Source: a virus
Taxonomy: Duplodnaviria; Heunggongvirae; Uroviricota; Caudoviricetes
IMG/VR virus record: IMGVR_UViG_2778261121_000001
Location: 1-55,913 of that record
Length of the DNA: 55,913 bases
Direction: 5' to 3' (one strand)
The position numbers and the translations under genes are program-made. Numbering within the stretch: position 1 is the stretch's first letter; the number at the start of each line of letters is the position of its first letter. The notes beneath the pieces are model-generated. The model had not been told where the DNA came from, did not search any database, and worked only from the letters and a program-made list of their open reading frames with translations. Positions 1 to 49,211 of the stretch are shown in pieces.

Positions 1-110
1 CCATAACCTATTGATATTTAAGGGTATGATTGCAGGTATGGAAGGGGAGTAGTGGCGATCAACGGATTCTTATAGAAAAGAATCAAATTGTGACCGCCAT
101 TATCAATGTT

Positions 111-845
111 TTACATAGTTTTGTTTAGCAGAGAGAGAATTTCATCACTAATTTCACTCGCCTGTTTGATAGCCAATGCAGTTACCTCTTCTATGGTTGG
201 TGACTGTTGATGCTCATGTTTGGTTTCAGTTATGACAATGTGTTCTTCACCTGAATTTGCGCATAGTGCCGCATTGACGATAAGGTTTGAGTAAGAATTT
301 AGCAGAGCACTGTTGATGAACGCTTTCACGGTATTACTGTCTGCACCAAATACATCTTTTCTGACCGCTTCAGCCTCACAGCGAACCCCTGCAGCAACAT
401 CGTGAAGAACATGTATGGCCTTGGGGCTTGTTTGTTCACAGTACTCAATCATTATTGTCGAATTGTTCTGTTCAACAAACGATCTGATGCCTGACGATTC
501 ACCCATAGCATCGAAGGCAGCGTGACCCGCACTGGTAGAGATATCTTCATAGAGTTCTTCATCGCTATCTTTTTCTTCAGGTGTCGAGGTGTCTTCATCG
601 TCGTAATAGATATTGCCTTTAATCAGTGTTTTGGACACTTGATATAAACAATAAGAAACGAGATTTAAGCATTGGATTTTAGCTGTATTGTCCTTTGTCG
701 CCTCGCTCTTCAGTTCTTTCGCTTCTTCAGTAAGGCTGTTGATAAGACTTTGTATTTTTTCCAACGCGTTAGGCGCACACTCCGCGTTGTCCATAAAGAA
801 TTTATAACCAGTCCCAGGGATTTCTAAACTTTTCAACTTTTTCAT
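111..845 (-). CDS. hypothetical protein (244 aa), last gene of a three-gene operon
   Basis: ORF in track; no recognisable motifs; co-oriented with the two upstream ORFs. Confidence 0.45.
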   Translation of the reverse strand: MKKLKSLEIPGTGYKFFMDNAECAPNALEKIQSLINSLTEEAKELKSEATKDNTAKIQCLNLVSYCLYQVSKTLIKGNIYYDDEDTSTPEEKDSDEELYEDISTSAGHAAFDAMGESSGIRSFVEQNNSTIMIEYCEQTSPKAIHVLHDVAAGVRCEAEAVRKDVFGADSNTVKAFINSALLNSYSNLIVNAALCANSGEEHIVITETKHEHQQSPTIEEVTALAIKQASEISDEILSLLNKTM

Positions 846-890
846 TTCTTTGATAATCCTAAAAACAAACTACCAATGCTTTAATATCTG

Positions 891-1190
891 TTACCAGTTC
901 CAGCACTCAAGCCCTTCAACGACCGGTGCGCCACAATCGAAATGTACAGAGTCAAAACCTACATCAAGTACTTTCTGAATGTTAGCAATTGCGCCTTCGG
1001 ATATACCATATCGACGCAAGTTGTCTTTCCAGACATCATCCTGTAACCCGGCGTGGACAATACAACCGCCGTCAATTTGCGAAACCCAATCCAGCTCATT
1101 GCTTGCGATCATGAATCGGCGAGCATCTTCCTCTGATGTATGAGATGAACTGATCAATGCCACCTGGTAGGATTGAGTAATATTTAACAT
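891..1190 (-). CDS. hypothetical protein (99 aa)
   Basis: ORF in track; 7-nt overlap with the upstream ORF suggests translational coupling. Confidence 0.4.
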   Translation of the reverse strand: MLNITQSYQVALISSSHTSEEDARRFMIASNELDWVSQIDGGCIVHAGLQDDVWKDNLRRYGISEGAIANIQKVLDVGFDSVHFDCGAPVVEGLECWNW

Positions 1191-1432
1191 CCTCTCTCCC
1201 CGTTTGGAAACAACTCATTCGCCGTAGTGGATATAACCTCCCAATTAACGCCGACATCAGCGTTATGGCATTGTCTGATTTTTTGCATCACCTGTACGCA
1301 TTGTTCATCAGTGAGATCTGTCCTTACTTCAGCAATATCTTCTTTGTGCCACATAACCATGAGTAATGGTTCGTCTTCTGGATAGTTTTTCAGTTTCTCG
1401 ATGATTTCTTTTGCTGTTCCAAACATCTTCAT
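1184..1432 (-). CDS. hypothetical protein (82 aa)
   Basis: ORF with AGGA Shine-Dalgarno; preceded at 1437-1456 by the element-specific AAACAACTTGTTTTCTTAT motif. Confidence 0.45.
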   Translation of the reverse strand: MKMFGTAKEIIEKLKNYPEDEPLLMVMWHKEDIAEVRTDLTDEQCVQVMQKIRQCHNADVGVNWEVISTTANELFPNGERGC

Positions 1433-1436
1433 ATCC

Positions 1437-1456
1437 TAAACAACTTGTTTTCTTAT
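1437..1456 (-). promoter_or_regulatory. conserved 5'-leader motif TAAACAA-S-TTGTTTTCTTAT (instance 1)
   Basis: Near-identical copies at 15756-15775, 16484-16503, 26710-26729 and 38441-38460, each 5-45 nt upstream of a start codon. Confidence 0.5.
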
Positions 1457-1585
1457 GTGCTTTATTATCTCAAACAACAAAACACAGAAAACAAATTGTT
1501 TTAGGGTTTGTGCAAATCAGAAGGTATTGCGTCTATATGAAAATGCCCAGCGTATTGCTGGGCATTGTGAAGAATGGTTGTTTAG

Positions 1586-3619
1586 TTACTTAACTTGGTG
1601 GCCTGGTTTAGCACCAGCATCCGGGCTTAACAGGAAGATATCTTTCCCACCGGGGCCAGCAGCCATCACCATACCTTCGGAGATACCGAAGCGCATTTTA
1701 CGCGGAGCCAGGTTAGCCACCATAATGGTGTGACGACCAATCAGTGCCTGTGGGTCTGGATAAGCAGAACGGATGCCTGAGAAGACATTGCGTTTTTCAC
1801 CACCTAGATCCAGCGTCAGACGCAGCAGTTTGTCAGAACCTTCAACAAACTCTGCGTTTTCAATCAGCGCCACGCGCAGGTCAACTTTGGCGAAGTCGTC
1901 AAAGGTGATAGTTTCCTGAATCGGGTCGTCAGCCAGTGGGCCAGTTACCGGTGCGGCTGTGGCTTTCACTTCTTCTTTGGATGCTTCCACCAGTGCTTCA
2001 ACCTGCTTCATATCGATGCGGTTATACAGTGCCTTGAACGGATTCACTTTATGGCCCAGCAACGGTTGCTGGATGCCATCCCAGGTCAGTTCTGTATTCA
2101 GGAATGCTTCTGCACGTTCAGTCAGTTTCGGCAGTACCGGCTTCAGGTACGTCATCAGCACGCGGAACAGGTTAATGCCCATAGAGCAAATCGCCTGCAG
2201 ATCGGCATCGCGTCCTTCCTGCTTCGCCACCACCCACGGAGCCTGTTCATCGACATAGCGGTTAGCCAGGTCAGCCAATGCCATGATTTCACGGATAGCT
2301 TTACCAAATTCACGGCTTTCCCATGCTTCGCCAATCACTTCAGCGGCATCAGTAAAGGTTTTGTACAGTTGCGGGTCAGCCAGTTCGCTTGCCAGCACGC
2401 CGTCAAAACGCTTGTTGATAAAGCCTGCATTACGGGAGGCCAGGTTAACCACTTTGTTCACGATATCGGCATTCACGCGCTGAACGAAATCCTCCAGGTT
2501 GAGATCGATATCATCAATGCGCGAAGAGAGTTTCGCAGTGTAGTAGTAACGCAGGCTGTCAGCGTCAAAATGATTCAGCCAGGTGCTGGCTTTAATAAAG
2601 GTGCCGCGAGACTTGGACATCTTCGCGCCGTTCACCGTCACATAGCCGTGAACAAACAGGTTGGTCGGCTTGCGGAAGTTGCTGCCTTCCAGCATGGCAG
2701 GCCAGAACAGGCTGTGGAAGTAAACAATATCTTTACCGATGAAGTGGTACAGCTCGGCGGTGGAGTCTTTCTTCCAGTATTCATCGAAGCTGGTGGTATC
2801 GCCGCGCTTGTCGCACAGATTCTTGAAGGAACCCATGTAGCCAATCGGCGCGTCCAGCCAGACGTAGAAATATTTGCCCGGCGCGTTCGGAATTTCAAAA
2901 CCGAAGTAAGGCGCATCGCGGGAGATATCCCACTGTTGCAGGCCGGATTCAAACCACTCCTGCATTTTATTTGCCACCTGCTCCTGCAACGCACCGCTGC
3001 GGGTCCATGCCTGCAACATTTCGCTGAAAGAAGGCAGATCAAAGAAGAAGTGTTCGGAATCACGCATTACCGGGGTAGCGCCAGAAACCACCGATTTCGG
3101 CTCGATCAATTCAGTCGGGCTATATGTTGCGCCGCAGACTTCACAGTTATCGCCGTATTGATCTGGCGCTTTACATTTCGGGCAGGTGCCTTTTACAAAA
3201 CGATCCGGCAGGAACATGCCTTTTTCCGGGTCGTACAACTGAGAGATAGTGCGGTTTTTAATAAAACCGTTCTCTTTCAGGCGAGTATAGATAAGCTCAG
3301 ACAACTGACGGTTCTCTTCGCTGTGCGTCGAGTGATAGTTGTCATAGCTGATGTTAAAGCCTGCGAAATCAGTCTGGTGTTCCTGACTCATTTCGCCAAT
3401 CATCTGCTCCGGTGTGATACCAAGCTGCTGTGCTTTCAGCATGATCGGCGTACCGTGGGCATCGTCGGCACAGATGAAATTAACCTCGTGGCCGCGCATT
3501 CGCTGGTAACGAACCCAGACATCAGCCTGGATGTGCTCCAGCATATGGCCGAGGTGGATTGAGCCGTTAGCGTACGGCAGCGCGCACGTCACCAGAATTT
3601 TCTTCGCGACTTGGGTCAT
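1586..3619 (-). CDS. metG: methionine--tRNA ligase
   Basis: Translation from [29 protein letters not shown] to the C-terminus matches E. coli MetG almost residue for residue; start set at the MTQ methionine rather than the longer track ORF. Confidence 0.95.
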
Positions 3620-3776
3620 AGTAGGCATTACTTCTTTGTAGTGAAAAGGGGCTTGATAGTAACAAAATGGCCTTATGTCTGCCATGTGATAACAGCATTT
3701 CTCATAAATGATTAAATGTCGTAGCTGGAGTACACTACAAGGCGACAATTGCGCAAATTAAAATAAAGGAGACGGG

Positions 3777-4877
3777 ATGAGCGAGTCCAAATCGCCGGAT
3801 GCCCTGAGAGCAATGGTAGCCGGTACGCTGGCTAATTTTCAGCACCCAACCCTGAAACACAACCTGACTACGCTTAAAGCGTTACACCATGTTGCGTTGA
3901 TGGATGACACACTGCATGTCGAACTAATCATGCCTTTCGTGTGGAATAAGCCTTTTGAAGACCTGAAAGAGCAATGTAGTGGTGATCTGCTCCGTATCAC
4001 TGGCGCAAAGGCTATTGACTGGAAGCTGTCGTACAACATTGCCACGCTTAAGCGCGTCAAAAACCAACCAGGCATTAATGGCGTTAAGAATATTATCGCC
4101 GTAAGCTCAGGCAAGGGCGGTGTAGGCAAATCGTCCACAGCAGTAAACTTGGCACTGGCGTTGGCTGCTGAAGGTGCGAAAGTTGGTATTTTGGATGCCG
4201 ATATCTACGGGCCATCAATTCCAACCATGCTGGGCGCGGAAAACCAACGTCCAACCTCACCAGACGGTACTCACATGGCACCTATTATGTCTCATGGCCT
4301 GGCAACCAATTCTATTGGTTATCTGGTCACCGACGACAATGCGATGGTGTGGCGTGGACCGATGGCTAGCAAGGCGCTGATGCAGATGTTGCAGGAAACA
4401 CTGTGGCCTGATCTGGACTATCTCGTTCTCGATATGCCGCCGGGCACTGGTGATATTCAATTGACGCTGGCGCAGAACATTCCTGTAACGGGTGCTGTGG
4501 TGGTAACTACGCCGCAAGATATCGCGCTGATCGATGCGAAGAAAGGCATTGTGATGTTCGAAAAAGTCGAAGTGCCGGTACTGGGTATCGTCGAAAACAT
4601 GAGTGTGCATATTTGCAGTAACTGCGGTCATCACGAGCCAATTTTCGGCACCGGTGGCGCAGAGAAACTGGCCGAGAAATACAACACGCAGTTGTTAGGC
4701 CAAATGCCACTTCATATCTCACTTCGTGAAGATCTGGATAACGGAACACCAACCGTTATTAGTCGTCCAGATAGCGAATTTACGGCTATTTATCGTGACC
4801 TCGCAGATCGCGTTGCTGCCCAAATGTATTGGCAAGGTGAAGTAATACCTGGCGAAATCGCATTCCGCGCAGTGTGA
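3777..4877 (+). CDS. apbC: iron-sulfur cluster carrier ATPase ApbC/Mrp
   Basis: Walker A SSGKGGVGKSS plus CxxC near the C-terminus; strong similarity to E. coli Mrp; divergent from metG as in enterobacterial chromosomes. Confidence 0.93.
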   Translation: MSESKSPDALRAMVAGTLANFQHPTLKHNLTTLKALHHVALMDDTLHVELIMPFVWNKPFEDLKEQCSGDLLRITGAKAIDWKLSYNIATLKRVKNQPGINGVKNIIAVSSGKGGVGKSSTAVNLALALAAEGAKVGILDADIYGPSIPTMLGAENQRPTSPDGTHMAPIMSHGLATNSIGYLVTDDNAMVWRGPMASKALMQMLQETLWPDLDYLVLDMPPGTGDIQLTLAQNIPVTGAVVVTTPQDIALIDAKKGIVMFEKVEVPVLGIVENMSVHICSNCGHHEPIFGTGGAEKLAEKYNTQLLGQMPLHISLREDLDNGTPTVISRPDSEFTAIYRDLADRVAAQMYWQGEVIPGEIAFRAV

Positions 4878-4914
4878 TAAAAAGGCGGTGCATTGCACCG
4901 CCTAATCAGTTCTC

Positions 4915-5304
4915 CTACATCACGGGACAATCATCAAACTCGCCACTTCTTGCGTCGTTGATAATGTGAGTGATCACACCAAACACGGCATTGCTGCCCG
5001 TGCATCCATCGTCATCCTTTGGCAATGCTTCCTTCTTACCGGTTCTTAAATCCTCCAGATGCTGACGTGGGTACTTCCGGTATCTTTTTACGCGATATTC
5101 CCCATCCAGAGCGCATACAAGCAGAGAACCATCAACCGGGGTAAGTGAGGAATCGACCACCAGCAATGCACCCTGTAATATTCCCTCACGATGATGACTA
5201 TCAGCTGCCCTCATGAAGTAGGTCGCTGAAGGATGTCTAATTATCTGCTGATCAAGAGAAATACGGCTCTCAGCATAATCCGCCGCAGGAGAAGGGAAGC
5301 CCAT
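4915..5304 (-). CDS. UmuD'-like protein (pre-processed UmuD homolog, HumD-like)
   Basis: Begins GFPSPAADY, the position of the UmuD autocleavage product, and aligns with the UmuD C-terminal domain; LexA box immediately upstream. Confidence 0.7.
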   Translation of the reverse strand: MGFPSPAADYAESRISLDQQIIRHPSATYFMRAADSHHREGILQGALLVVDSSLTPVDGSLLVCALDGEYRVKRYRKYPRQHLEDLRTGKKEALPKDDDGCTGSNAVFGVITHIINDARSGEFDDCPVM

Positions 5305-5320
5305 AATACTCGCCTCTTAG

Positions 5321-5340
5321 TACTGTATACACATACAGTG
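5321..5340. promoter_or_regulatory. LexA (SOS) box
   Basis: TACTGTATACACATACAGTG fits CTGT-N8-ACAG, 17 nt upstream of the 4915..5304 start codon. Confidence 0.65.
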
Positions 5341-5528
5341 TATATTGAAGCTATATATTTTTGAACTCTATCTCTTAAAAAAGATGTTAATAAGATGCTA
5401 ACTATTGAAAGGCATAAATATATACAATTCAAACAAACGTTATTTTTAACAAATTTTTTCTTCCCATTGACTTTTTCGAACGCCTTGTCAGGTCTAAAGT
5501 GCGCAGAAGTCACTTTTTCCTTCCTGAG

Positions 5529-5537
5529 TTATCCACA
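5529..5537. promoter_or_regulatory. DnaA box (TTATCCACA)
   Basis: Perfect consensus 9-mer in an AT-rich ORF-free region; the same TTATCCACAGGC 12-mer recurs at 35078. Confidence 0.4.
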
Positions 5538-5635
5538 GGCTTATGCACTTGCATGAAAAATCTATTCACACTATCTTAATTCGCAAGACACTGATGTTGC
5601 AGTATTGAGGGTATGTTGGGTTAAAAATAGACATT

Positions 5636-5666
5636 AAAAAGCCCAGTTGACTAGGCTGGGCTTTTT
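5636..5666. terminator. bidirectional intrinsic terminator-like hairpin
   Basis: AAAAA-GCCCAG-loop-CTGGGC-TTTTT. Confidence 0.5.
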
Positions 5667-5966
5667 AAAAGGAAACAGAGTTTGCGGCTCTGTTCCTGAG
5701 CCATAAGTATCTGGCGACTGAATTAAGATTAACCGAATGTACTGGATTCATCAAGAAACGTTGAGTGGTCATACTAGGTAATAATGACCATTTACTAAAC
5801 ATCGTTGTTCTCAAAGAAGATTTAAGTCCAGGTTTTTGGTGACTCTAAAACCTTACCTTAACTCGAAATCGTGCCGTAAGTATCTGGCGACTACAGATAT
5901 TGCAACTGCAAAGGCAAGCCCAAAGGTATTTGCAGCTAGGCGCGATAAAACTAAGTGAGGCCTGTT

Positions 5967-6050
5967 ATGGTTAACTTACTGTTCAAAATCGTGCCGCCGA
6001 TGTTCGCGATTATCAAAGCGATCATTGAGTACGTAAACCAGCGTCCATAA
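5967..6050 (+). CDS. candidate small hydrophobic peptide (27 aa, MVNLLFKIVPPMFAIIKAIIEYVNQRP)
   Basis: ATG with GAGG 8 nt upstream; followed directly by a strong plus-strand terminator; below the ORF-track size cutoff. Confidence 0.25.
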   Translation: MVNLLFKIVPPMFAIIKAIIEYVNQRP

Positions 6051-6064
6051 CGCTAGTTGCTACA

Positions 6065-6096
6065 GGCCCCATCAAGAGCATGGGGCCTCTTTATCG
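6065..6096 (+). terminator. intrinsic terminator
   Basis: GGCCCCAT-loop-ATGGGGCC followed by a T-rich run. Confidence 0.55.
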
Positions 6097-6105
6097 TACT
6101 ATTGC

Positions 6106-15738: not shown

Positions 15739-15877
15739 GTGTTTTTCCTAATGCTTAAACAAGTTGTTTTCTTATTGGCTTTATTGTGATGTGGCATAAA
15801 AGGGGAGCAAGCTAAACGTAAAGGTGCAAACTCTCTATTTCGGTCAACGAAACACAAGGGCCATTTGGCCCTTGTCA

Positions 15878-16461: not shown

Positions 16462-16554
16462 GTGCTTTCCTTTTGTTATTTGTTAAAACAAGTTGTTTTC
16501 TAGTTACATGAATTGCTTACGAAAAGACGGTCAATGCATATGCACTAACAACCG

Positions 16555-26685: not shown

Positions 26686-26785
26686 GTGTTTTTCCTTTTT
26701 TGATGTGTTTAAACAAGTTGTTATCTTATGTGTTTAAACAAGGCTTACAAATCAAAGATAAGGTGGGGATATACCCCACCATATG

Positions 26786-35360: not shown

Positions 35361-36416
35361 ATGAGCGAAAACGGCAATAAAAACATAGCGATCGTTGAAG
35401 CATTTTCAGAAACAGATAAAAAGACAGGCGAAGTTGTTACGTTGGTTCCTAACACTAATAACACTGTTCAGCCTGTTGCTTTGATGCGTCTGGGCCTCTT
35501 CGTTCCGACGCTGAAATCGACATCCAGAGGAAGAAAGGGGCAAATGGTCTCTATGGATGCCTCTGCTGAACTCAAACAGCTGTCTCTGGCAAAAGCCGAA
35601 GGGTACGAAGACATAAGGATCTCTGGCCTTCGGCTTGATATGGATAACGACTTTAAAACGTGGGTGGGAATAATCCACGCGTTTGCCAAACACAAGGTCG
35701 TTGGCGATACTGTCACGTTGCCGTTCGTTGAGTTTGTAAGGCTGTGTGGCATTCCGACCGCCAGGTCATCAGCGAAGTTACGCAAACGCCTGGACAGTTC
35801 GCTAAGCCGTATTGCCACAAATACCATCTCGTTCCGTAGCAAAGGCTCTGATGAGTTTTACGTAACGCATCTTGTGCAAACGGCAAAATATAGTGTCAAG
35901 CACGATACGGTCGAACTGAAAGCAGATCCCAAGATTTTCGAACTCTACCAGTTCGACAAAAAGGTTCTTCTGCAACTCCGGGCTATAAACGAACTCTCAA
36001 GAAAAGAATCCGCTCAGGCGCTTTATACTTTTATTGAAAGTTTGCCGCCTGATCCGGCACCAATATCACTAGCCCGTTTACGCGCCAGACTTAATCTGAC
36101 AAGTCGCACTATTACTCAGAATGCGACGGTAAGAAAGGCTATGGAACAGCTGCGAGAGATAGGATATCTCGATTACACGGAAGTTAAGCGCGGAAACTCG
36201 GTCTACTTCGTCATCCACTATAGGCGGCCAAAGTTACGCCAGGCACAAATATCAACAAAAATCGATAATGATGAGACGGAATATAGCCTCCCAGATGAGA
36301 ATCAAGATGACATTATCGACGTTGTGCCTGACGAAAAAGAAGGCAAAATGGTCATGTTGAGTAAAGAAGAACTGGCGCTTCTCGAAGAGTTGCGCAAGGC
36401 AAAGACTCGCAAATAG
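35361..36416 (+). CDS. repA: plasmid replication initiator (RepA-like, iteron-binding)
   Basis: 351-aa plus-strand ORF flanked by iteron arrays on both sides; family assigned from this P1-type arrangement, not from a sequence motif. Confidence 0.7.
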
Positions 36417-38424: not shown

Positions 38425-38474
38425 GTTTTCTTATCCTTTTAAACAAATTGTTTTCTTAATAAGATAATTGCGAT

Positions 38475-39643: not shown

Positions 39644-41983
39644 TTACTCTTCTACTGACTCGGTGGGATTGTCTTTTGATCTCCGGTCGTCGATTGCCTG
39701 TAAAGCCGCAATGATTTCAGCTAGTGGCTTCTCCCGATACATCTCGACGATCTGTGATTTGGTGTATTTCTTGTCACCAATTTCTACTCGACCGCTGGCG
39801 TTCTTTGGCAGGTATCCTTCTTCCAGCATGTACTCGACGAGCGATTCGATAACGTCGAGGCCACGAGTAGGATCGAAGTAGAATTTCCAGGTGCATTTGC
39901 CATACGGTGGTGCAACTTTGTTTTTGATGCATTCTGCGCCTACGTCCTGGCCGATCTTCTCTTTACCATCCTTCATCACCGATGCACCAAGACGGATACG
40001 TACAGAAGCGTAGAACTTCGGTGAATCTCCACCTGGCGACGTAGTAGGGTCGCCAAACATTACACCGATTTTTGTGCGAACCTGATTCAAGAAGATGATG
40101 CAGGCGTTGTATTTGCGTGCCCACAAAGCCAGAGTAGGGAAGTTCGCACTCGTCGCACGAGCCAGTGCCGTATTGTCGTTCATGTTTAGCTGATCTTTGT
40201 CTTTGGCTGTGCCTTCAGCCATCTTTTCGAACTTCTCGGCTTTGGAGTTCGGAACCATAGACGCAAGAGAGTCAGCCACGATACAGATAGGTGCTGATTC
40301 GGGGATAAGCTCTTCATCACGAACCAATTTAAGTATTGTGCCGATCAACTCTACAGAGTCTTCGAAGGTATCTGGCTGCTTGTACACCCACTGACCGTCA
40401 TCCTCATCTGCGTTCAGGCCATTGGCTACAGCCAGGCCAACGTCAAAACTGTTTTCATGATCGAGGAATACCGCCAGACCATCTTGTTTTTGAGCGGAGA
40501 TCATCGCTGCTGTTGCAAGGAATGTGTTGTGGCTGATAATCCCGTTAGACCAGAAAGAGTGTGTTTCCGGCATCGCTACGTCGAACGTTGGTGCTTCACC
40601 TTCCTCAATAGCCACGACTTCGTCGTAGAACAAGTTAGAGCCAATTACCGCTGCCAGTTGTGCAAACAGATGCTCGTTAAAACGATTCTTTCTGCCAATG
40701 AAGGAGACATAGATTTCTCGCAGTTTGTCTATTCCGACACGATCGCCGCGGCCAATAACGTGGTCTACCAGAGCGTAGTCTTCACGGGTGGTCTTGGTGA
40801 GCGACTCGTAGAGTGATTTCACTAAGCCGCTGATGTGCGGAACATAGCCTGAGTAAGTGCGGTCAAAACCAATGTCCCGTTTGGTTGCCACTGATAAACG
40901 TGCCGGAGATTCGAAACCAATCGTTGACAGAAAAAGGTCGTAATTAGAGCCACTGAATGACAGCCGGTAATATGTATTTTCATAACCCGCGACGTGTTTT
41001 TCAGAGATAGTTGACGTAATCCCCAGATTCAGGAGCATGAGGCGAATTTGCTGTAGCAGCAGCCCACTCGCGCTCACAACCTCAATGCAGCGACCATCAT
41101 TGACGTGGCATTCCAGCTCAAAGTAGCCGCGAAGGAATGCAATTTGAGCCTCGCTATTGGCGCGACGCACACTCAACGGAACCTGCTTGCCAGCAGCTTT
41201 CTCATACTCCAGACCATATTCTTTAAAAAGCAGCGAACGCACCTCTTTGCTAAACAGCACATGGTCTTCCGAGCCGTTATGTTTTCTCGTAACTGGCATC
41301 TTGTCTGATACCAGCGAAATGAGGCGGTAGTACTCATCCTTGATGAAAGGATCTGTGTTAGAAAAATTCACTGAATTTTCAGAGGCCACGTATCCGTCAG
41401 CAATTAAATAGCCCATCAGTTTTGCGATATTGGCATCCAGGTGCTGATCGCCGAATTGATGTGTGCCAACCATTGAAGGAATCGTGTCGCCTACACTGAT
41501 TTTTTCAGCATGTCGCCAGACGACATTACCTAAGTCGTCAACCACACGGATTGGGTGACGGAACGTAGCCTCGATATAACCGCCTGATGCCAGCTTAATA
41601 CGCTTGAATTTGCGATGGTTGTTCCATGTCAGGTGTGAGGTCTTCTCTATCACGCCATTTTCATTGATGAGTCCAACGTTATGCTCTACATCGCGAGTAG
41701 TGCATGTCGCTTTGTACCCTTCAATCTCAAACAACTCTTTCACTGTTACCATTCCACGCTCCGTCAGCAGCATGGTGTCTGCGGTAACACATTTCCCCGC
41801 ACTTGGAGGACCGAATACTTCGACGATACGACCACATGGGAAGCCGCCATCGTAACGACCGGAAATAGCTTTGTTTAACGGAGGAAAGCCTGTGTCAATC
41901 CAATGAGTTACTTTCTGAATTTCGTCGTTGCTACCGATTTTCTTTTTCAGAGCAAGTGCCAGTGCGGATTTTCCTTTTGCCAT
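39644..41983 (-). CDS. RecA-like recombinase interrupted by an intein
   Basis: Exteins (64 + 293 aa) give a RecA-sized protein with Walker A GPPSAGK|TFLAT split by the intein. Confidence 0.8.
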   Translation of the reverse strand: MAKGKSALALALKKKIGSNDEIQKVTHWIDTGFPPLNKAISGRYDGGFPCGRIVEVFGPPSAGKCVTADTMLLTERGMVTVKELFEIEGYKATCTTRDVEHNVGLINENGVIEKTSHLTWNNHRKFKRIKLASGGYIEATFRHPIRVVDDLGNVVWRHAEKISVGDTIPSMVGTHQFGDQHLDANIAKLMGYLIADGYVASENSVNFSNTDPFIKDEYYRLISLVSDKMPVTRKHNGSEDHVLFSKEVRSLLFKEYGLEYEKAAGKQVPLSVRRANSEAQIAFLRGYFELECHVNDGRCIEVVSASGLLLQQIRLMLLNLGITSTISEKHVAGYENTYYRLSFSGSNYDLFLSTIGFESPARLSVATKRDIGFDRTYSGYVPHISGLVKSLYESLTKTTREDYALVDHVIGRGDRVGIDKLREIYVSFIGRKNRFNEHLFAQLAAVIGSNLFYDEVVAIEEGEAPTFDVAMPETHSFWSNGIISHNTFLATAAMISAQKQDGLAVFLDHENSFDVGLAVANGLNADEDDGQWVYKQPDTFEDSVELIGTILKLVRDEELIPESAPICIVADSLASMVPNSKAEKFEKMAEGTAKDKDQLNMNDNTALARATSANFPTLALWARKYNACIIFLNQVRTKIGVMFGDPTTSPGGDSPKFYASVRIRLGASVMKDGKEKIGQDVGAECIKNKVAPPYGKCTWKFYFDPTRGLDVIESLVEYMLEEGYLPKNASGRVEIGDKKYTKSQIVEMYREKPLAEIIAALQAIDDRRSKDNPTESVEE
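40526..41791 (-). mobile_element. intein with LAGLIDADG homing-endonuclease domain (422 aa)
   Basis: Starts with Cys after GPPSAGK, ends with HN before Thr; LAGLIDADG-like blocks (LMGYLIADGYV, FLRGYFELECHV). Confidence 0.7.
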
Positions 41984-44959: not shown

Positions 44960-46129
44960 TCACGTCTTAATAGTTTCTGCTACGTCGGCTAATATAGCTT
45001 CTAGTCGTTCTCCCTCTTCAGGTCTGAAGTAAAGAATGTTGGGGTTAAACCCGTAAAAGACAGTAACGTCAAGGTCTGGAAGATACTCCTTCCTGCCGAC
45101 CAAATCGGATGGCTTGTTTTTGTTGTTAAACAATGAAGTTGCCCGGCTGCCACACGTCAGCACATAGGTCGGACGCACCAGATTGATCTCTTCACGCATA
45201 AAGTCGGTGAACTGGCCGATCTCGTCTTTGGTGTAGTCTTTTTCTTTGTCTTTAACCTTCTTGCAAACGCCTGTGACATAGAGATCGCCCATGCGTAAAT
45301 CTCCAGCCGTCAATAGCTTGGCCTTAAAATCGTCGTATCCGTTCTCCATAAAGTAACCGGTTCGAGCATCATTGCCGTTCGCATTGTCCAGAATGATCAT
45401 GATTTTCGGCTTAATACCAATGCTGGGGCGGATTAGTTCATCACCTAAGCCCATTTCAGCCGCCATCCGTGTCATGAGCACGTTAATCTCAGCCGAACGT
45501 TTGGGGTTCATCTCAAACGGACGTGAGGCTTTAACTGCGTCTATGACAAGATTTCCCATCAATTCAGCCTGGTCGCGTAGGCGCTCTGGATCAGTTGCTG
45601 GCAGACTACCTGGCTCGATGGATGCAAACGCCCCTACTTTTTGCAGCGATTCGCGCACTCGACTATTACAGGCACGTTTCTCGACAGCTTCTTCGAATTG
45701 CGCAAGTGACTCGAATTTGCCACCAACCTTTTCTCGCGCTCTCATGATGGCCTGGCAGCCATTCTCAGAACACCCCTTCACAGCAGAGAAGGGCGCATAC
45801 AGCACCTGGCTGCCATCTTCAAGCGTGCGGATCTCGATTCGGTTAGATGACACGTTAACGTCTGGTGGCAATACGCGAATACCATAGGTCAGCGCATCTT
45901 TAACCAGCCCCTGGTGTTTATCTTCGCCAAGAATAGTGAGAGCAGCAGCGAAAAACTCTGCGGGATAATGAGTTTTCAACCACATAGATTGATAACTGAT
46001 CAAGGAGTAAGCAACAGAGTGTGATTTGTTAAAGGCGTATCCACCGAACTTTTCAAAGGCGTCCCATATTTCCTGGGCTTTCTCAGGGCTAAGACCTTCC
46101 TGCTCGGAAATAACTTTTGCAATTTTCAT
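44960..46129 (-). CDS. DNA polymerase III alpha (DnaE) C-terminal fragment
   Basis: Begins MKIAKVI...FEKFGGYAFNKSHS, aligning with the DnaE fingers region; own ATG in the conserved GGGAAAACACATG context. Confidence 0.75.
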   Translation of the reverse strand: MKIAKVISEQEGLSPEKAQEIWDAFEKFGGYAFNKSHSVAYSLISYQSMWLKTHYPAEFFAAALTILGEDKHQGLVKDALTYGIRVLPPDVNVSSNRIEIRTLEDGSQVLYAPFSAVKGCSENGCQAIMRAREKVGGKFESLAQFEEAVEKRACNSRVRESLQKVGAFASIEPGSLPATDPERLRDQAELMGNLVIDAVKASRPFEMNPKRSAEINVLMTRMAAEMGLGDELIRPSIGIKPKIMIILDNANGNDARTGYFMENGYDDFKAKLLTAGDLRMGDLYVTGVCKKVKDKEKDYTKDEIGQFTDFMREEINLVRPTYVLTCGSRATSLFNNKNKPSDLVGRKEYLPDLDVTVFYGFNPNILYFRPEEGERLEAILADVAETIKT

Positions 46130-46149
46130 GTGTTTTCCCGTTGCTAGCT

Positions 46150-46851
46150 TCAAATGCTTGCTTTTTTTAAGATATTTGCGATTTGAGTGTTAGATATGCC
46201 GAATTTTTCTCGCAACTTTTCGTAGGTTGCGCCAGCTTTGCGCAAGGCGACCACTTCAGCTCTTGCTTCGTCATCCAGCTTTTTGGATGCCCTTGAGGCA
46301 ACGATCGGCCCACCAATACGTGCCCATTTCTTCCCGGTGACGATATGGTGAATATAAAGCTCAGTTAAACCATATTCGGCCGCGAGGTCTTTGTTCAGAG
46401 CACCCTCTGACTTTTTAATGCGAATAGCAATGACGACTTCGTTGGTTAGCTTGGCGTTGTAGCGCCTCTCACCAAACTCAACGGTATCGTGTGCAATGGC
46501 GTCAGCCATGTTGTCGACTTGAGTGCCATACGCGAGATTGAAGGGCGCATTGTTTGATGGTTTACCGTCAAGATGACGAATAAGTAAGCCTTCTGGTCGT
46601 TCTCCGTGGAATGCAGTTGCTACCAGATAATGAACTGTGCGGTCGTATTTGACGCCGTTGACGCTTAGTTTCACGCCAAGATGTCCAAAATCATTGATTA
46701 CGCGAGGTTTTAGGATTTGCCCCTTCTTCACCCATTCGCCCCCTTTGGGGGCTGTTTGTATAACATCTAATGAGCGAATGCGTCCTAAACTGGATGCTTC
46801 GTAATAACCTTCAAATTCAGGAATAGATTTCCAAACTTCTTCCACCGTCAA
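46150..46851 (-). CDS. HNH homing endonuclease inserted within dnaE
   Basis: 233-aa ORF in a different frame from both dnaE halves, overlapping the upstream stop and ending 18 nt before the downstream ATG; family assigned from the split-gene context, no HNH or NUMOD motif checked. Confidence 0.6.
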   Translation of the reverse strand: MTVEEVWKSIPEFEGYYEASSLGRIRSLDVIQTAPKGGEWVKKGQILKPRVINDFGHLGVKLSVNGVKYDRTVHYLVATAFHGERPEGLLIRHLDGKPSNNAPFNLAYGTQVDNMADAIAHDTVEFGERRYNAKLTNEVVIAIRIKKSEGALNKDLAAEYGLTELYIHHIVTGKKWARIGGPIVASRASKKLDDEARAEVVALRKAGATYEKLREKFGISNTQIANILKKASI

Positions 46852-49211
46852 ACTCCAAAATCAACAATATCAGCGTTGTCACTCATCGCTTCGTCATAGG
46901 TCCTGCGTTTGCCGTCAGAGCACAGCAGCATGGCCTTTTTGTGGACTTCTACTGTGCTTCCGTCTTCAAGTGACAGTGTCACCCAGCCTGCTTGTGCTCG
47001 TTCTACAAAATCGCTGCCGATCGCTTTCATCTTTTCCATGTTCTTCTTACCGATGGCGGAACGCAGAGCATCAGCCTCCGCCATAGAGAATCCAGCGAGC
47101 ACACGAGAGCTTTTCATAATTTGCTCTTGATAGAGCAAAACGCCGTTAGTTTCTTTGGTTGTTTCCTCAAGACGAGGATGAATTGAATGTGGAGCCATAA
47201 AACCTTTGGCGACAGAAACATAGTCATCCAACATGCCTGACTGAATTGGCCCCGGCCGGAAGAGCGCAGTTGTAGCAACAACCGTTTTAAAGCTCATTGG
47301 CTCAATTCCACCACCTAAATCTTTAAGCAGCTTGCGCATTGGGCCTGATTCAAGCTGGAAAACACCTTGAGTGTACCCAGCAGCAAAACCATCCAGCACC
47401 TTGCGATCCTCAAGAGAAATGGCATCAAGATTGATATCTTCACCTGTGTTCTCTTTTATGTAGCGTTTTGCACTATCGAGCAAATCGAGAGTTGCCAGGC
47501 CAAGCACGTCTAGCTTAATTAGGCCCATAGCCTCGCAGTAACGCTTGTCAAATGCGATACAACGCGCGTCACCACGGCGTTCAACCGGTGTACGTTCTGT
47601 CAGAGGAACACCTGCTACGATCATCCCTGCCGCATGTCTACCAAAGCCACGCATAAGGCTTTGTAACTTGCAGGCTGCATTGAATGCATCAGGATATTTT
47701 GTTGCGTATTTGTCGAGACTTGCCAGTTGTTCGCGCAGCTCTTCCAATGGAAGGCTATCATCCTCGACGTTCTTCAGTTCTTTTGATACCGCCATATCTG
47801 CGGACTCCACACCATAAATACGAGCGGTGTCACGTAGTGCAGAGGCTGCGCCCAGGTAGGTGAAGTTCGGAATGCCTGCAACGTAATCTTCGCCGTAGCG
47901 TTCATTCAGATACTCGATCACCTCATGGCGACGTGCCTGGCTGAAGTCCAAGTCCGCATCTGGCAAGTCGAGACGCTCAGGGTTGATGAAACGCTCAAAC
48001 AGAAGACCGTGACGGATTGGGTCGACGTTGGTTATGCCTATGCACCACGCCACCAGAGAACCGGCAGAGGAACCACGACCAGGCCCGACAGGAATGCCAG
48101 TTTCACGGCTGTGATTCATCAGATCGCGTACCATCAGGAAGTAACCACAAAATCCCAGGCGAGTCAGCGTGTCCATTTCGTACTTAAGCCGTTCAACATA
48201 AATCCTGTTCTCAGAAGCCGGTGGTGTGTAGCCAAACTCTTTTGTGGTAAGACGTTTACGCAGCCCAGCAACGGCCAGTTTCATCAGCGTTGCAGGCTCG
48301 TCGTCTGCCATCTTTGGCAGTGCTGGTGGCAATTCATGCCAGCGCCATGTGCAGGCATCGATAATGGTATCCTGCGTTGTTGAGGCCATTGCAGCTGTTA
48401 CCGGCACATCCATGCGAACGGAGAAGGCTTTAAGAGCCTCAAGGAGATGGCGGCGACCATTGACGGCGTTATCTCGCTGGTGGGGGATACGCAGACGATG
48501 CGGCTGGTCGATTTTGATGTTGTTCGTAACCATGTGCGCAATGTCTTTAATGTCTGCATCGTCGATCGATTCGTAATAAGCGGGATAGAACGCTACTGGC
48601 TCTATTTTCAGTGCTCTGGCGACTTTCATCGCCCGGACGTTAATCTGGTCGTAGAATGGTGTAGGGTGCGGATAAACCACACTATAGAAGTTGTCTTTTC
48701 CACCTGCTGTAATCAGTGAGCTTATGATTTTTGCAAAATCGTTGCGTTGGAACACGCTACCGATGTCGGAAGTGAGCAGGATGATGTTGCCTTTGGCATA
48801 TGTAGAAACCAACTGTTCGAGCGAGAGACGCGGTACAAAGTAGAACTGTTCTCGTGTGTTGGCCACCGTCATTAGTTCGCAGATGTCGCGATATCCTTGC
48901 TCATTTTTAATTAGAGCGGTAAACGAGTAGTTACGTCCTCGCTCTAATGATTCCATACATCCCTTAGACTCTTTAGCAAGTTTAGCCCGGTACTCGTATG
49001 TGGGATCATCAACGATATTTAGTTTCACACCACAAATAACCGCCATGTCGTCACCAGCGGCACGTTGTAGTGGAATAACACTCGCAATATTCATGCTATC
49101 TGCTGAAATTACAGCGGTGTAGCCAGCTTCTCTGGCAATCTTCACCGCGTTTTCCGCTTTTAAAGCCGACTCCCCAAGTGAGAAGTCAGTTCGAACCATC
49201 AGTGCCTTCAT
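46848..49211 (-). CDS. DNA polymerase III alpha (DnaE) N-terminal fragment (PHP and polymerase core)
   Basis: 787 aa aligning with the DnaE N-terminal two thirds; conserved start context. Confidence 0.85.
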   Translation of the reverse strand: MKALMVRTDFSLGESALKAENAVKIAREAGYTAVISADSMNIASVIPLQRAAGDDMAVICGVKLNIVDDPTYEYRAKLAKESKGCMESLERGRNYSFTALIKNEQGYRDICELMTVANTREQFYFVPRLSLEQLVSTYAKGNIILLTSDIGSVFQRNDFAKIISSLITAGGKDNFYSVVYPHPTPFYDQINVRAMKVARALKIEPVAFYPAYYESIDDADIKDIAHMVTNNIKIDQPHRLRIPHQRDNAVNGRRHLLEALKAFSVRMDVPVTAAMASTTQDTIIDACTWRWHELPPALPKMADDEPATLMKLAVAGLRKRLTTKEFGYTPPASENRIYVERLKYEMDTLTRLGFCGYFLMVRDLMNHSRETGIPVGPGRGSSAGSLVAWCIGITNVDPIRHGLLFERFINPERLDLPDADLDFSQARRHEVIEYLNERYGEDYVAGIPNFTYLGAASALRDTARIYGVESADMAVSKELKNVEDDSLPLEELREQLASLDKYATKYPDAFNAACKLQSLMRGFGRHAAGMIVAGVPLTERTPVERRGDARCIAFDKRYCEAMGLIKLDVLGLATLDLLDSAKRYIKENTGEDINLDAISLEDRKVLDGFAAGYTQGVFQLESGPMRKLLKDLGGGIEPMSFKTVVATTALFRPGPIQSGMLDDYVSVAKGFMAPHSIHPRLEETTKETNGVLLYQEQIMKSSRVLAGFSMAEADALRSAIGKKNMEKMKAIGSDFVERAQAGWVTLSLEDGSTVEVHKKAMLLCSDGKRRTYDEAMSDNADIVDFGV

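Follow-up and report, generated by a model that had tools for sequence, protein, structure and literature searches.

A metG–apbC pair carried as captured cargo by a phage-plasmid of the SSU5 supergroup

How does a pair of bacterial housekeeping genes come to lie in viral DNA, with mobile-element genes on both sides of it? The question is raised by IMG/VR record IMGVR_UViG_2778261121_000001, whose positions 1 to 55,913 (the whole stretch of 55,913 nucleotides that we analysed, here called the window) contain near their left end metG, for a full-length, 677-residue methionyl-tRNA synthetase (MetRS) of the Escherichia type (1586-3619, minus strand), and, divergent from it, apbC (mrp), for a 366-residue Fe-S cluster carrier P-loop NTPase (3777-4877, plus strand). 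A first-pass annotation, made from the sequence alone, had left three explanations side by side: gene capture by a phage-plasmid, two independent insertions, or an assembly chimera. Our analysis favours the first. The window is very probably, in its entirety, a stretch of an extrachromosomal SSU5-supergroup phage-plasmid of Escherichia/Shigella, and the metG–apbC pair is fixed cargo captured by this lineage.

The gene pair and the element around it

To the left of metG lie three open reading frames (ORFs), at 111-845, 891-1190 and 1184-1432, all on the minus strand, in agreement with the three-gene operon that had been annotated at 111-1432. The middle frame is an element backbone gene, a homologue of SSU5_105 that encodes a 99-residue DUF5983 protein (Pfam PF19419, E 1e-10), and the frame nearest to metG encodes an 82-residue homologue of SSU5_104, named DUF1380 in RefSeq relatives. 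By tblastn, the two products match SSU5 positions 88631-88945 (44% amino acid identity) and 88395-88634 (74%), respectively. To the right, exactly 37 bp (4878-4914), the distance given in the first-pass annotation, separate the apbC stop codon from that of a P1-type, humD-like gene (4915-5304, minus strand; UmuD'-like, Pfam Peptidase_S24), which is 86-88% identical in nucleotides to humD of P1, P7, D6, RCS47 and SJ46. Further on, ORF-by-ORF tblastn showed that positions 9.9-52.8 kb of the window are colinear with SSU5 from 86.8 to 43 kb at 45-95% amino acid identity, RepA, NrdAB, ThyA, dihydrofolate reductase (DHFR), DnaE and a RecA-like protein being encoded in both. The claim that element DNA flanks the pair on both sides is thus borne out, and the whole window is DNA of an SSU5-supergroup phage-plasmid.

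The window element has pLF82 (whose record is also that of Escherichia phage Cyrano), pECOH89 and pWPMR2-like elements as relatives. About 100 plasmids from E. coli and E. albertii, 105-125 kb in size and including pLF82, match positions 1-6000 at ~98% identity and ~96% coverage, and positions 6000-30900 match the same set, which also includes pECOH89, an E. marmotae plasmid and a Shigella sonnei plasmid (NZ_CP034066.1) that is 98% identical to the window across 25 kb. pLF82/Cyrano (OV696614; Misson et al. 2023, PMC9928086), at ~97.8% identity over 1-6000, has the same gene order, namely CYRAN_98 (humD-like), CYRAN_99 (apbC, there called 'septum site-determining protein'), CYRAN_100 (MetRS), CYRAN_101 and CYRAN_102, but lacks the 82-residue SSU5_104-like gene found in the window. 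An SSU5-type plasmid replication gene is present, the product of ORF 35361-36416 being 91% identical to SSU5 RepA (SSU5_069), and the relatives are typed as IncFIB or rep_cluster_488 and classed as non-mobilizable. The window corresponds to the replication and accessory half of the element; phage structural and lysis genes are present in its 98%-identical relative Cyrano. Cyrano is SOS-inducible, is present at ~5.5 copies per cell and forms siphovirus particles, its virions having been detected by quantitative PCR and electron microscopy (PMC9928086).

The pair itself forms a sharply bounded island. Homology to the E. coli K-12 chromosome is limited to positions 1586-4873, that is, it runs from stop codon to stop codon, and the chromosomal neighbours yehE and yehF are absent from the window. 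The mrp(apbC)-metG locus of K-12 (b2113-b2114) consists of the same genes, likewise divergent, and the proximal part of the metG leader is conserved, but its terminators differ, and the apbC product of the window is three residues shorter at the N-terminus. The G+C content of the block is 0.50-0.53, against 0.41 on either side and ~0.46 in the rest of the window. SSU5, the prototype of the supergroup together with pHCM2, resembles the window in its colinear backbone, in homologous left-flank genes and in a dispersed palindrome (see below), but lacks metG, apbC and humD. Between the same backbone genes, the ~8.5 kb of cargo in the window correspond to ~1.5 kb in SSU5 that hold other small genes (SSU5_101-103, one of them ydfZ-like), which places the metG–apbC pair in a variable accessory region. 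Within this region, the unit that is conserved in 11 aligned relatives begins at ~1433, in the left operon's operator region, and ends at ~4890, with the first arm of the hairpin of humD, and the flanking cargo differs from plasmid to plasmid.

The block of 3,292 bp from stop to stop was found at the same position, with 100% coverage and 95.9-98.6% identity, in ~190 plasmid records from E. coli, E. albertii and Shigella (the last with six records matched by the metG–apbC query), and ~30 IMG/VR viral contigs carry the element-type block as well. It was present and intact in every relative examined, and its length was constant in all 11 aligned phage-plasmid copies. As a marker of the element-type block we used the intergenic region with the 5′ end of apbC (3630-4060), which occurs in 217 of 5,426 closed E. 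coli genomes, at 218 plasmid places and no chromosomal one, and is at least 99% identical in 184 of 216 carrier genomes. All 218 places are plasmid replicons, which shows extrachromosomal maintenance for the relatives of the window element. A metG match was found in every one of the 5,426 genomes, at 5,424 chromosomal places and at 219 plasmid places that represent an added second copy; chromosomal metG and apbC always coexist with the phage-plasmid copies. These results show that metG–apbC is a single 3.3-kb piece of enterobacterial chromosome, the divergent mrp-metG locus, that was captured, trimmed to a few bases from the two stop codons and then fixed.

The distribution of the block also decides the two other explanations. 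A misjoining of chromosomal metG–apbC reads into a phage-plasmid contig is virtually impossible, since the same 3,292-bp architecture recurs at the same position in ~190 independently assembled plasmid records, a good many of which are closed, as well as in 217 closed genomes, and since an apbC that reaches only 82% identity to any E. coli chromosome, next to an intergenic region at 63%, cannot stem from chromosomal reads. That chimeras can arise at this locus is nevertheless suggested by one IMG/VR scaffold that joins chromosomal and phage-plasmid DNA through a hybrid metG. The same scaffold has the structure expected of Campbell-type integration, and with exact runs of up to 176 nucleotides shared between phage-plasmid and chromosomal metG, homologous recombination is mechanistically possible. 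It is still highly improbable that the window represents a chromosomal metG–apbC locus with two mobile-element insertions, or a phage-plasmid integrated by recombination at metG, because the window has no yehE/yehF flank, both its flanks are SSU5-backbone or element DNA, and the element-type block is found on none of the 5,426 closed chromosomes. With K-12 homology ending at the stop codons and apbC at 82%, the locus does not look like an integrated prophage or a genomic island either.

The hybrid scaffold (IMGVR_UViG_2740892421_000017, 13 kb) is of interest in its own right. It joins chromosomal DNA carrying yehE, apbC and the 5′ part of metG to phage-plasmid DNA, and in its hybrid metG a 5′ part from the phage-plasmid is joined to a 3′ part from E. 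coli, after which comes chromosomal DNA. The point of crossover is within a run of 126 nucleotides (window 2666-2791) that is identical in both copies. The scaffold reflects either a rare integration of Campbell type at metG or a chimeric assembly, and no such integration was seen among the closed E. coli chromosomes.

Discordant histories of metG and apbC

The two genes had been described as near-identical to their E. coli chromosomal counterparts, a description that does not survive alignment. The block is 88.5% identical to K-12 overall, with metG at 94.2% and apbC at 82.0% nucleotide identity. Across the 5,426 closed genomes identity to the window copies is bimodal for both genes: chromosomal metG falls at 93.2-94.3% and chromosomal apbC at ~82%, against 95-99% for the phage-plasmid copies of either gene. 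For metG, the divergence from K-12 (98.8% amino acid identity, dS 0.29) equals that between K-12 and Escherichia sp. E1V33 (dS 0.28). For apbC (94.8% amino acid identity, dS ~1.6) it exceeds that between K-12 and Salmonella (dS 1.34). Since apbC is synonymously saturated with respect to Escherichia, the recent capture that near-identity would imply is wrong. The G+C content of third codon positions (GC3) is 0.607 in metG of the window (K-12, 0.626) and 0.516 in apbC (K-12, 0.621).

Both products retain the domains and motifs of their families. MetG contains tRNA-synt_1g (residues 8-397, E 5e-166), Anticodon_3 and tRNA_bind (581-674) Pfam domains, and its translation shows the HLGH and KMSKS motifs, Cys knuckles and the C-terminal dimerisation/tRNA-binding domain; with catalytic core, anticodon-binding and C-terminal domains, it is predicted to be a complete MetRS, a class I aminoacyl-tRNA synthetase (aaRS). 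ApbC, with PF10609 at residues 103-346 (E 2e-102), a deviant Walker A motif (GKGGVGKS) and a C-x-x-C motif (CSNCGH), is likewise a predicted ApbC/Mrp Fe-S carrier. Its residues 87-301 are 100% identical to E. coli Mrp, all changes being limited to the N- and C-terminal parts.

Among the 11 phage-plasmid copies every metG and every apbC is intact, and both genes are under strong purifying selection (metG, pS 0.160 and pN/pS 0.015; apbC, pS 0.087 and pN/pS 0.006). The copies encode eight distinct MetG proteins and two distinct ApbC proteins, and metG pairwise identity falls as low as 93.5%. Sites that are fixed in all phage-plasmid copies and differ from K-12 number 21 out of 2,034 in metG and 159 out of 1,101 in apbC, so that the ratio of polymorphism to divergence differs ~10-fold between the two genes. 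The 157-bp divergent intergenic region between them (3620-3776), which contains the promoters, is private to the phage-plasmid lineage: it is 98.7-100% identical among the 11 copies and 63% identical to K-12, and it is 26 bp longer than its K-12 counterpart. Diversity among the copies drops to 0-0.009 over 3486-4055, compared with 0.02-0.08 in the gene bodies.

Neighbour-joining trees reflect the same discordance. The phage-plasmid metG copies interleave with Escherichia, whereas those of apbC form a long private branch inside the Escherichia/Salmonella/Citrobacter group. In metG, 48% of informative site pairs fail the four-gamete test. One metG copy (relative L088) contains an E. coli (K-12)-type tract of 24 consecutive variable sites (p<0.0002), three further copies contain weaker K-12-like tracts (p ~0.03-0.05), and no tract derived from Escherichia sp. 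E1V33 was significant. In apbC, short K-12-like tracts were seen in the conserved core.

For possible donors we relied on one MetG scan of species-representative genomes, which gave 80 loci; the chromosomes of E. albertii, E. fergusonii and E. marmotae are not among them. At the protein level the nearest metG genes in this set are from Escherichia, namely Escherichia sp. E1V33 and a record labelled E. hormaechei. No chromosomal donor of apbC was found among these loci, the best match having 95.3% amino acid identity. The labelled record (CP170191.1, 'Enterobacter hormaechei B56' chromosome) has, like K-12, 99% amino acid identity to the window for metG and ~88% nucleotide identity over the block. 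The G+C content of its metG and the distances to the window copy exactly equal those of K-12, so the record looks like a mislabelled E. coli genome.

Taken together, these data suggest an old capture, of which apbC and the intergenic promoters would be the old, private part, synonymously saturated, drifted in base composition towards that of the element and by now too diverged to recombine with the host. metG, in turn, seems to have been replaced, or repeatedly overwritten and patched, through recombination with Escherichia chromosomal metG, which would leave it 94% host-like yet very polymorphic among phage-plasmids. A further-reaching proposal, which we consider less probable than not, is that apbC and its promoter region represent an ancient, closed phage-plasmid lineage, and maybe the primary selected cargo, with metG an open locus that keeps exchanging with the chromosomal metG of whatever Escherichia or Shigella is the host.

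The same observations could be read to mean that metG is a hitch-hiker, kept intact by gene conversion from the chromosomal copy, and that apbC alone, or neither gene, is useful to the element. metG shares its polymorphism with host alleles, has very few fixed differences, shows signals of recombination and is expressed at a low level, and apbC is the older and more strictly conserved partner. We nonetheless consider hitch-hiking quite unlikely. Conversion gives no protection from deletion of the whole gene, which packaging limits should favour, and the block has stayed at 3,292 bp in 11 of 11 copies and is fully covered in ~190 plasmid records. Moreover, metG has a terminator hairpin with compensatory changes (see below), and a functional effect of phage-plasmid metG expression is reported, as far as PMC12452169 describes it.

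An element-specific palindrome and other features of the window

The first-pass annotation had based its view of the left flank on a leader motif upstream of the left operon that recurs before other genes of the element. A 20-mer at 1437-1456 indeed recurs with at most two mismatches at 15756, 26710 and 38440 (the last had been placed at 38441), four matches against 0.02 expected; the copy that had been placed at 16484 is a weaker variant, in which the 20-mer itself does not recur and the palindromic core alone is present (16487-16497). The core is a 13-bp palindrome, AAACAA-N-TTGTTT (extended form AGAAAACAANTTGTTTA), with six copies in the window, whose inner AACAA-N-TTGTT lies at 1439-1449, 1490-1500, 15758-15768, 16487-16497, 26712-26722 and 38442-38452. 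The copy at 15758-15768 lies upstream of a minus-strand gene, and the palindrome is always in register with minus-strand genes, following a -10-like ATAAT and preceding the ribosome-binding site by 5-25 nucleotides. SSU5 has 13 copies, including one at the orthologous position upstream of SSU5_104, and a 783-kb sample of enterobacterial chromosomes from around metG contained none. Judged from its placement, the palindrome looks like an operator of the SSU5 family that is specific to the element and dispersed over it, with a logic like that of the C1 operators of P1. Its specificity for the element supports the assignment of the left flank to element DNA. The possibility that the left-hand genes are ordinary chromosomal neighbours of metG, which had been named as the observation that would undo this assignment, was not borne out, nor did the motif occur in the 783 kb of chromosomal DNA sampled.

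Two of the copies lie in the promoter/operator-like region of the left operon (1433-1510, minus strand), which combines the palindromes 1439-1449 and 1490-1500 with a -10-like GATAAT and is kept in 11 of 11 aligned phage-plasmid relatives, an orthologous site being present upstream of SSU5_104. The metG–apbC intergenic region contains no copy. A sigma-70 consensus scan gave fewer matches than in shuffled sequences and is uninformative on the metG and apbC promoters.

Each end of the block is marked by a hairpin. Downstream of metG, at 1545-1563 on the minus strand, lies an intrinsic-terminator-like hairpin, GCCCAGC-loop-GCTGGGC followed by ATTTTCAT on that strand, which is not homologous to the metG terminator of K-12. 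Its stem shows compensatory changes among phage-plasmids (CAGC/GCTG versus CGGC/GCCG; relatives L001 and L083-L091), a pattern that indicates probable selection on the structure. On the other side, the 37-bp spacer holds the hairpin terminator of the humD-like gene (4883-4903, minus strand), recognized by a terminator scan and from the sequence, with a U-tract that overlaps the stop codon of apbC. Immediately before the humD-like gene lies a LexA-box-like palindrome, TACTGTATACACATACAGT (5321-5339), which we take to fit the consensus CTGT-N8-ACAG.

Of the left-hand genes, the outermost (111-845) encodes a 244-residue hypothetical protein without a match in a Pfam search. It corresponds to Cyrano CYRAN_102 ('coiled-coil') and is variable accessory cargo, swapped for other genes in some relatives; its homologue is expressed ~6-fold above the prophage background in the LF82 lysogen. 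The 82-residue gene at 1184-1432 shows presence/absence polymorphism in the alignment of 11 relatives and in their annotations, Cyrano being one example of its absence.

Beyond the humD-like gene, ~750 bp (5340-6105) contain no notable ORF of at least 60 codons and gave no Rfam or tRNA match, as was the case for Rfam and tRNA scans of the whole window; a strong hairpin terminator lies at 5640-5657 (minus strand). Two replication and recombination genes carry insertions. The RecA-like gene (39644-41983, minus strand) encodes 779 residues, against 358 in SSU5, and its product contains an intein (Pfam Intein_splicing 73-486) that includes a homing endonuclease of the LAGLIDADG type (LAGLIDADG_3 279-356). 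The gene for DnaE, the Pol III alpha subunit (44960-49211, minus strand), a single ORF in SSU5, is split into ORFs 46848-49211 and 44960-46153, and an HNH/NUMOD4 homing-endonuclease gene (46150-46851) is inserted between the halves.

Expression and possible role of the pair

Transcriptome data for the lysogen LF82 (supplement of PMC9928086) place apbC at ~92 and metG at ~16 against a prophage background of ~10, so that apbC stands ~9-fold above background. The Cyrano paper lists apbC as a moron and does not discuss metG (PMC9928086). In macrophages, expression of the humD homologue CYRAN_98 rises from log2 7.4 to 12.3, ~30-fold, while metG remains flat, which suggests that the humD terminator insulates the block.

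Published work on a relative offers a possible role for metG. Plasmid pWPMR2 of S. sonnei, placed in the SSU5 supergroup and reported in E. coli CC131, CC23 and CC73 (10.1101/2025.09.12.675607), carries, as PMC12452169 cites from Tam et al. 2024 (medRxiv 10.1101/2024.10.27.24316207), an additional metG of high variability, and the window corresponds to this type in having a second, variable metG on an SSU5-type phage-plasmid beside the chromosomal copy. Expression of the pWPMR2 gene, according to the same citation in PMC12452169, gives rise to a sub-population predisposed to third-generation-cephalosporin resistance, and perturbation of MetRS is an established route to raised persistence (PMC11004401). 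By analogy, a cell carrying the window element would have ~5 extra copies, the number measured for Cyrano, of a gene that encodes a complete, dimerisation-competent MetRS and has a promoter and a terminator of its own. Extra metG expression could then perturb Met-tRNA charging and translation and create a drug-tolerant or persister sub-population, as published for the relative, to the advantage of the host and, through it, of the phage-plasmid that it carries. apbC, a moron expressed during lysogeny, may provide additional Fe-S carrier capacity.

Several observations weigh against this combined picture of an exchanging metG that acts on host survival. In LF82, the sole transcriptome, phage-plasmid metG is near background in all five conditions, including LB and macrophages, making a constitutive dosage effect of metG doubtful in this strain. 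What ties the window to pWPMR2 is membership in one group and the 98%-identical S. sonnei plasmid, not a direct alignment. E. coli-type conversion tracts are significant in some metG copies only (p=0.21 for the window's own copy), and unequal constraint on synonymous sites may account for part of the discordance between the two genes. Finally, the window MetRS differs from that of K-12 by eight conservative changes, none of them in catalytic motifs, and an altered enzyme is not predicted by the sequence.

The low expression of metG in the lysogen, despite its conservation, could instead mean that the pair is selected for the lytic cycle, boosting the charging of initiator and elongator Met-tRNA and Fe-S maturation while a ~110-kb genome is replicated and expressed. 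metG points in the same direction as the element's early and replication genes, and the lineage carries many genes of nucleotide metabolism (nrdAB, thyA, a DHFR gene and CobT-like genes). However, neither metG nor apbC has the element's operator palindrome in front of it, metG is insulated by the humD terminator and does not follow the ~30-fold rise of humD in macrophages, apbC is expressed in lysogeny, and the published phenotype, so far as the source describes it, is host survival. We regard a lytic role as unlikely, and a role in the survival of the lysogen remains our preferred reading.

A different precedent is the plasmid-borne mupA/ileS2 genes of mupirocin resistance, in which an extra aaRS gene on a mobile replicon stands beside the essential chromosomal copy and encodes a divergent, inhibitor-insensitive paralogue. 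The window MetRS, by contrast, is 98.8% identical to that of the host, and its few substitutions are conservative and spare the catalytic motifs, which makes replacement of a drug target unlikely. An altered or resistant MetRS was considered and rejected: S319T, V442I and R538K are the only changes fixed in phage-plasmid copies, and two of the three are also present in Escherichia sp. E1V33.

The layout that looked anomalous is real, widespread and ordinary for this lineage, and the element and its auxiliary metG are already known in the literature, RefSeq and ENA records annotating both metG and apbC. What is left, and of modest interest, is that apbC was captured along with metG and has been strictly conserved, that the promoter region hardly varies, and that exchange with host alleles seems confined to metG. 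Neither of the texts consulted, PMC12452169 and 10.1101/2025.09.12.675607, mentions apbC, the near-constancy of the region between the genes or their differing ages.

A second copy of an essential translation gene is unusual cargo for a temperate phage-plasmid, and ~4% of closed E. coli genomes carry the block. An extrachromosomal metG paralogue can confound calling of single-nucleotide polymorphisms in metG, association studies and short-read assembly; conversely, metG on a phage-plasmid should not be taken as a sign of misassembly. An auxiliary metG promotes antimicrobial survival in epidemic Shigella, according to the published work on the close relative as cited. If the proposed exchange is true, the variable, survival-linked metG alleles would arise by recombination between phage-plasmid and chromosome rather than by mutation, and hosts would moreover receive each other's alleles of an essential gene by way of the element. 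Should the difference between metG and apbC hold on the full data set, it would help to explain the source of this allelic variability.

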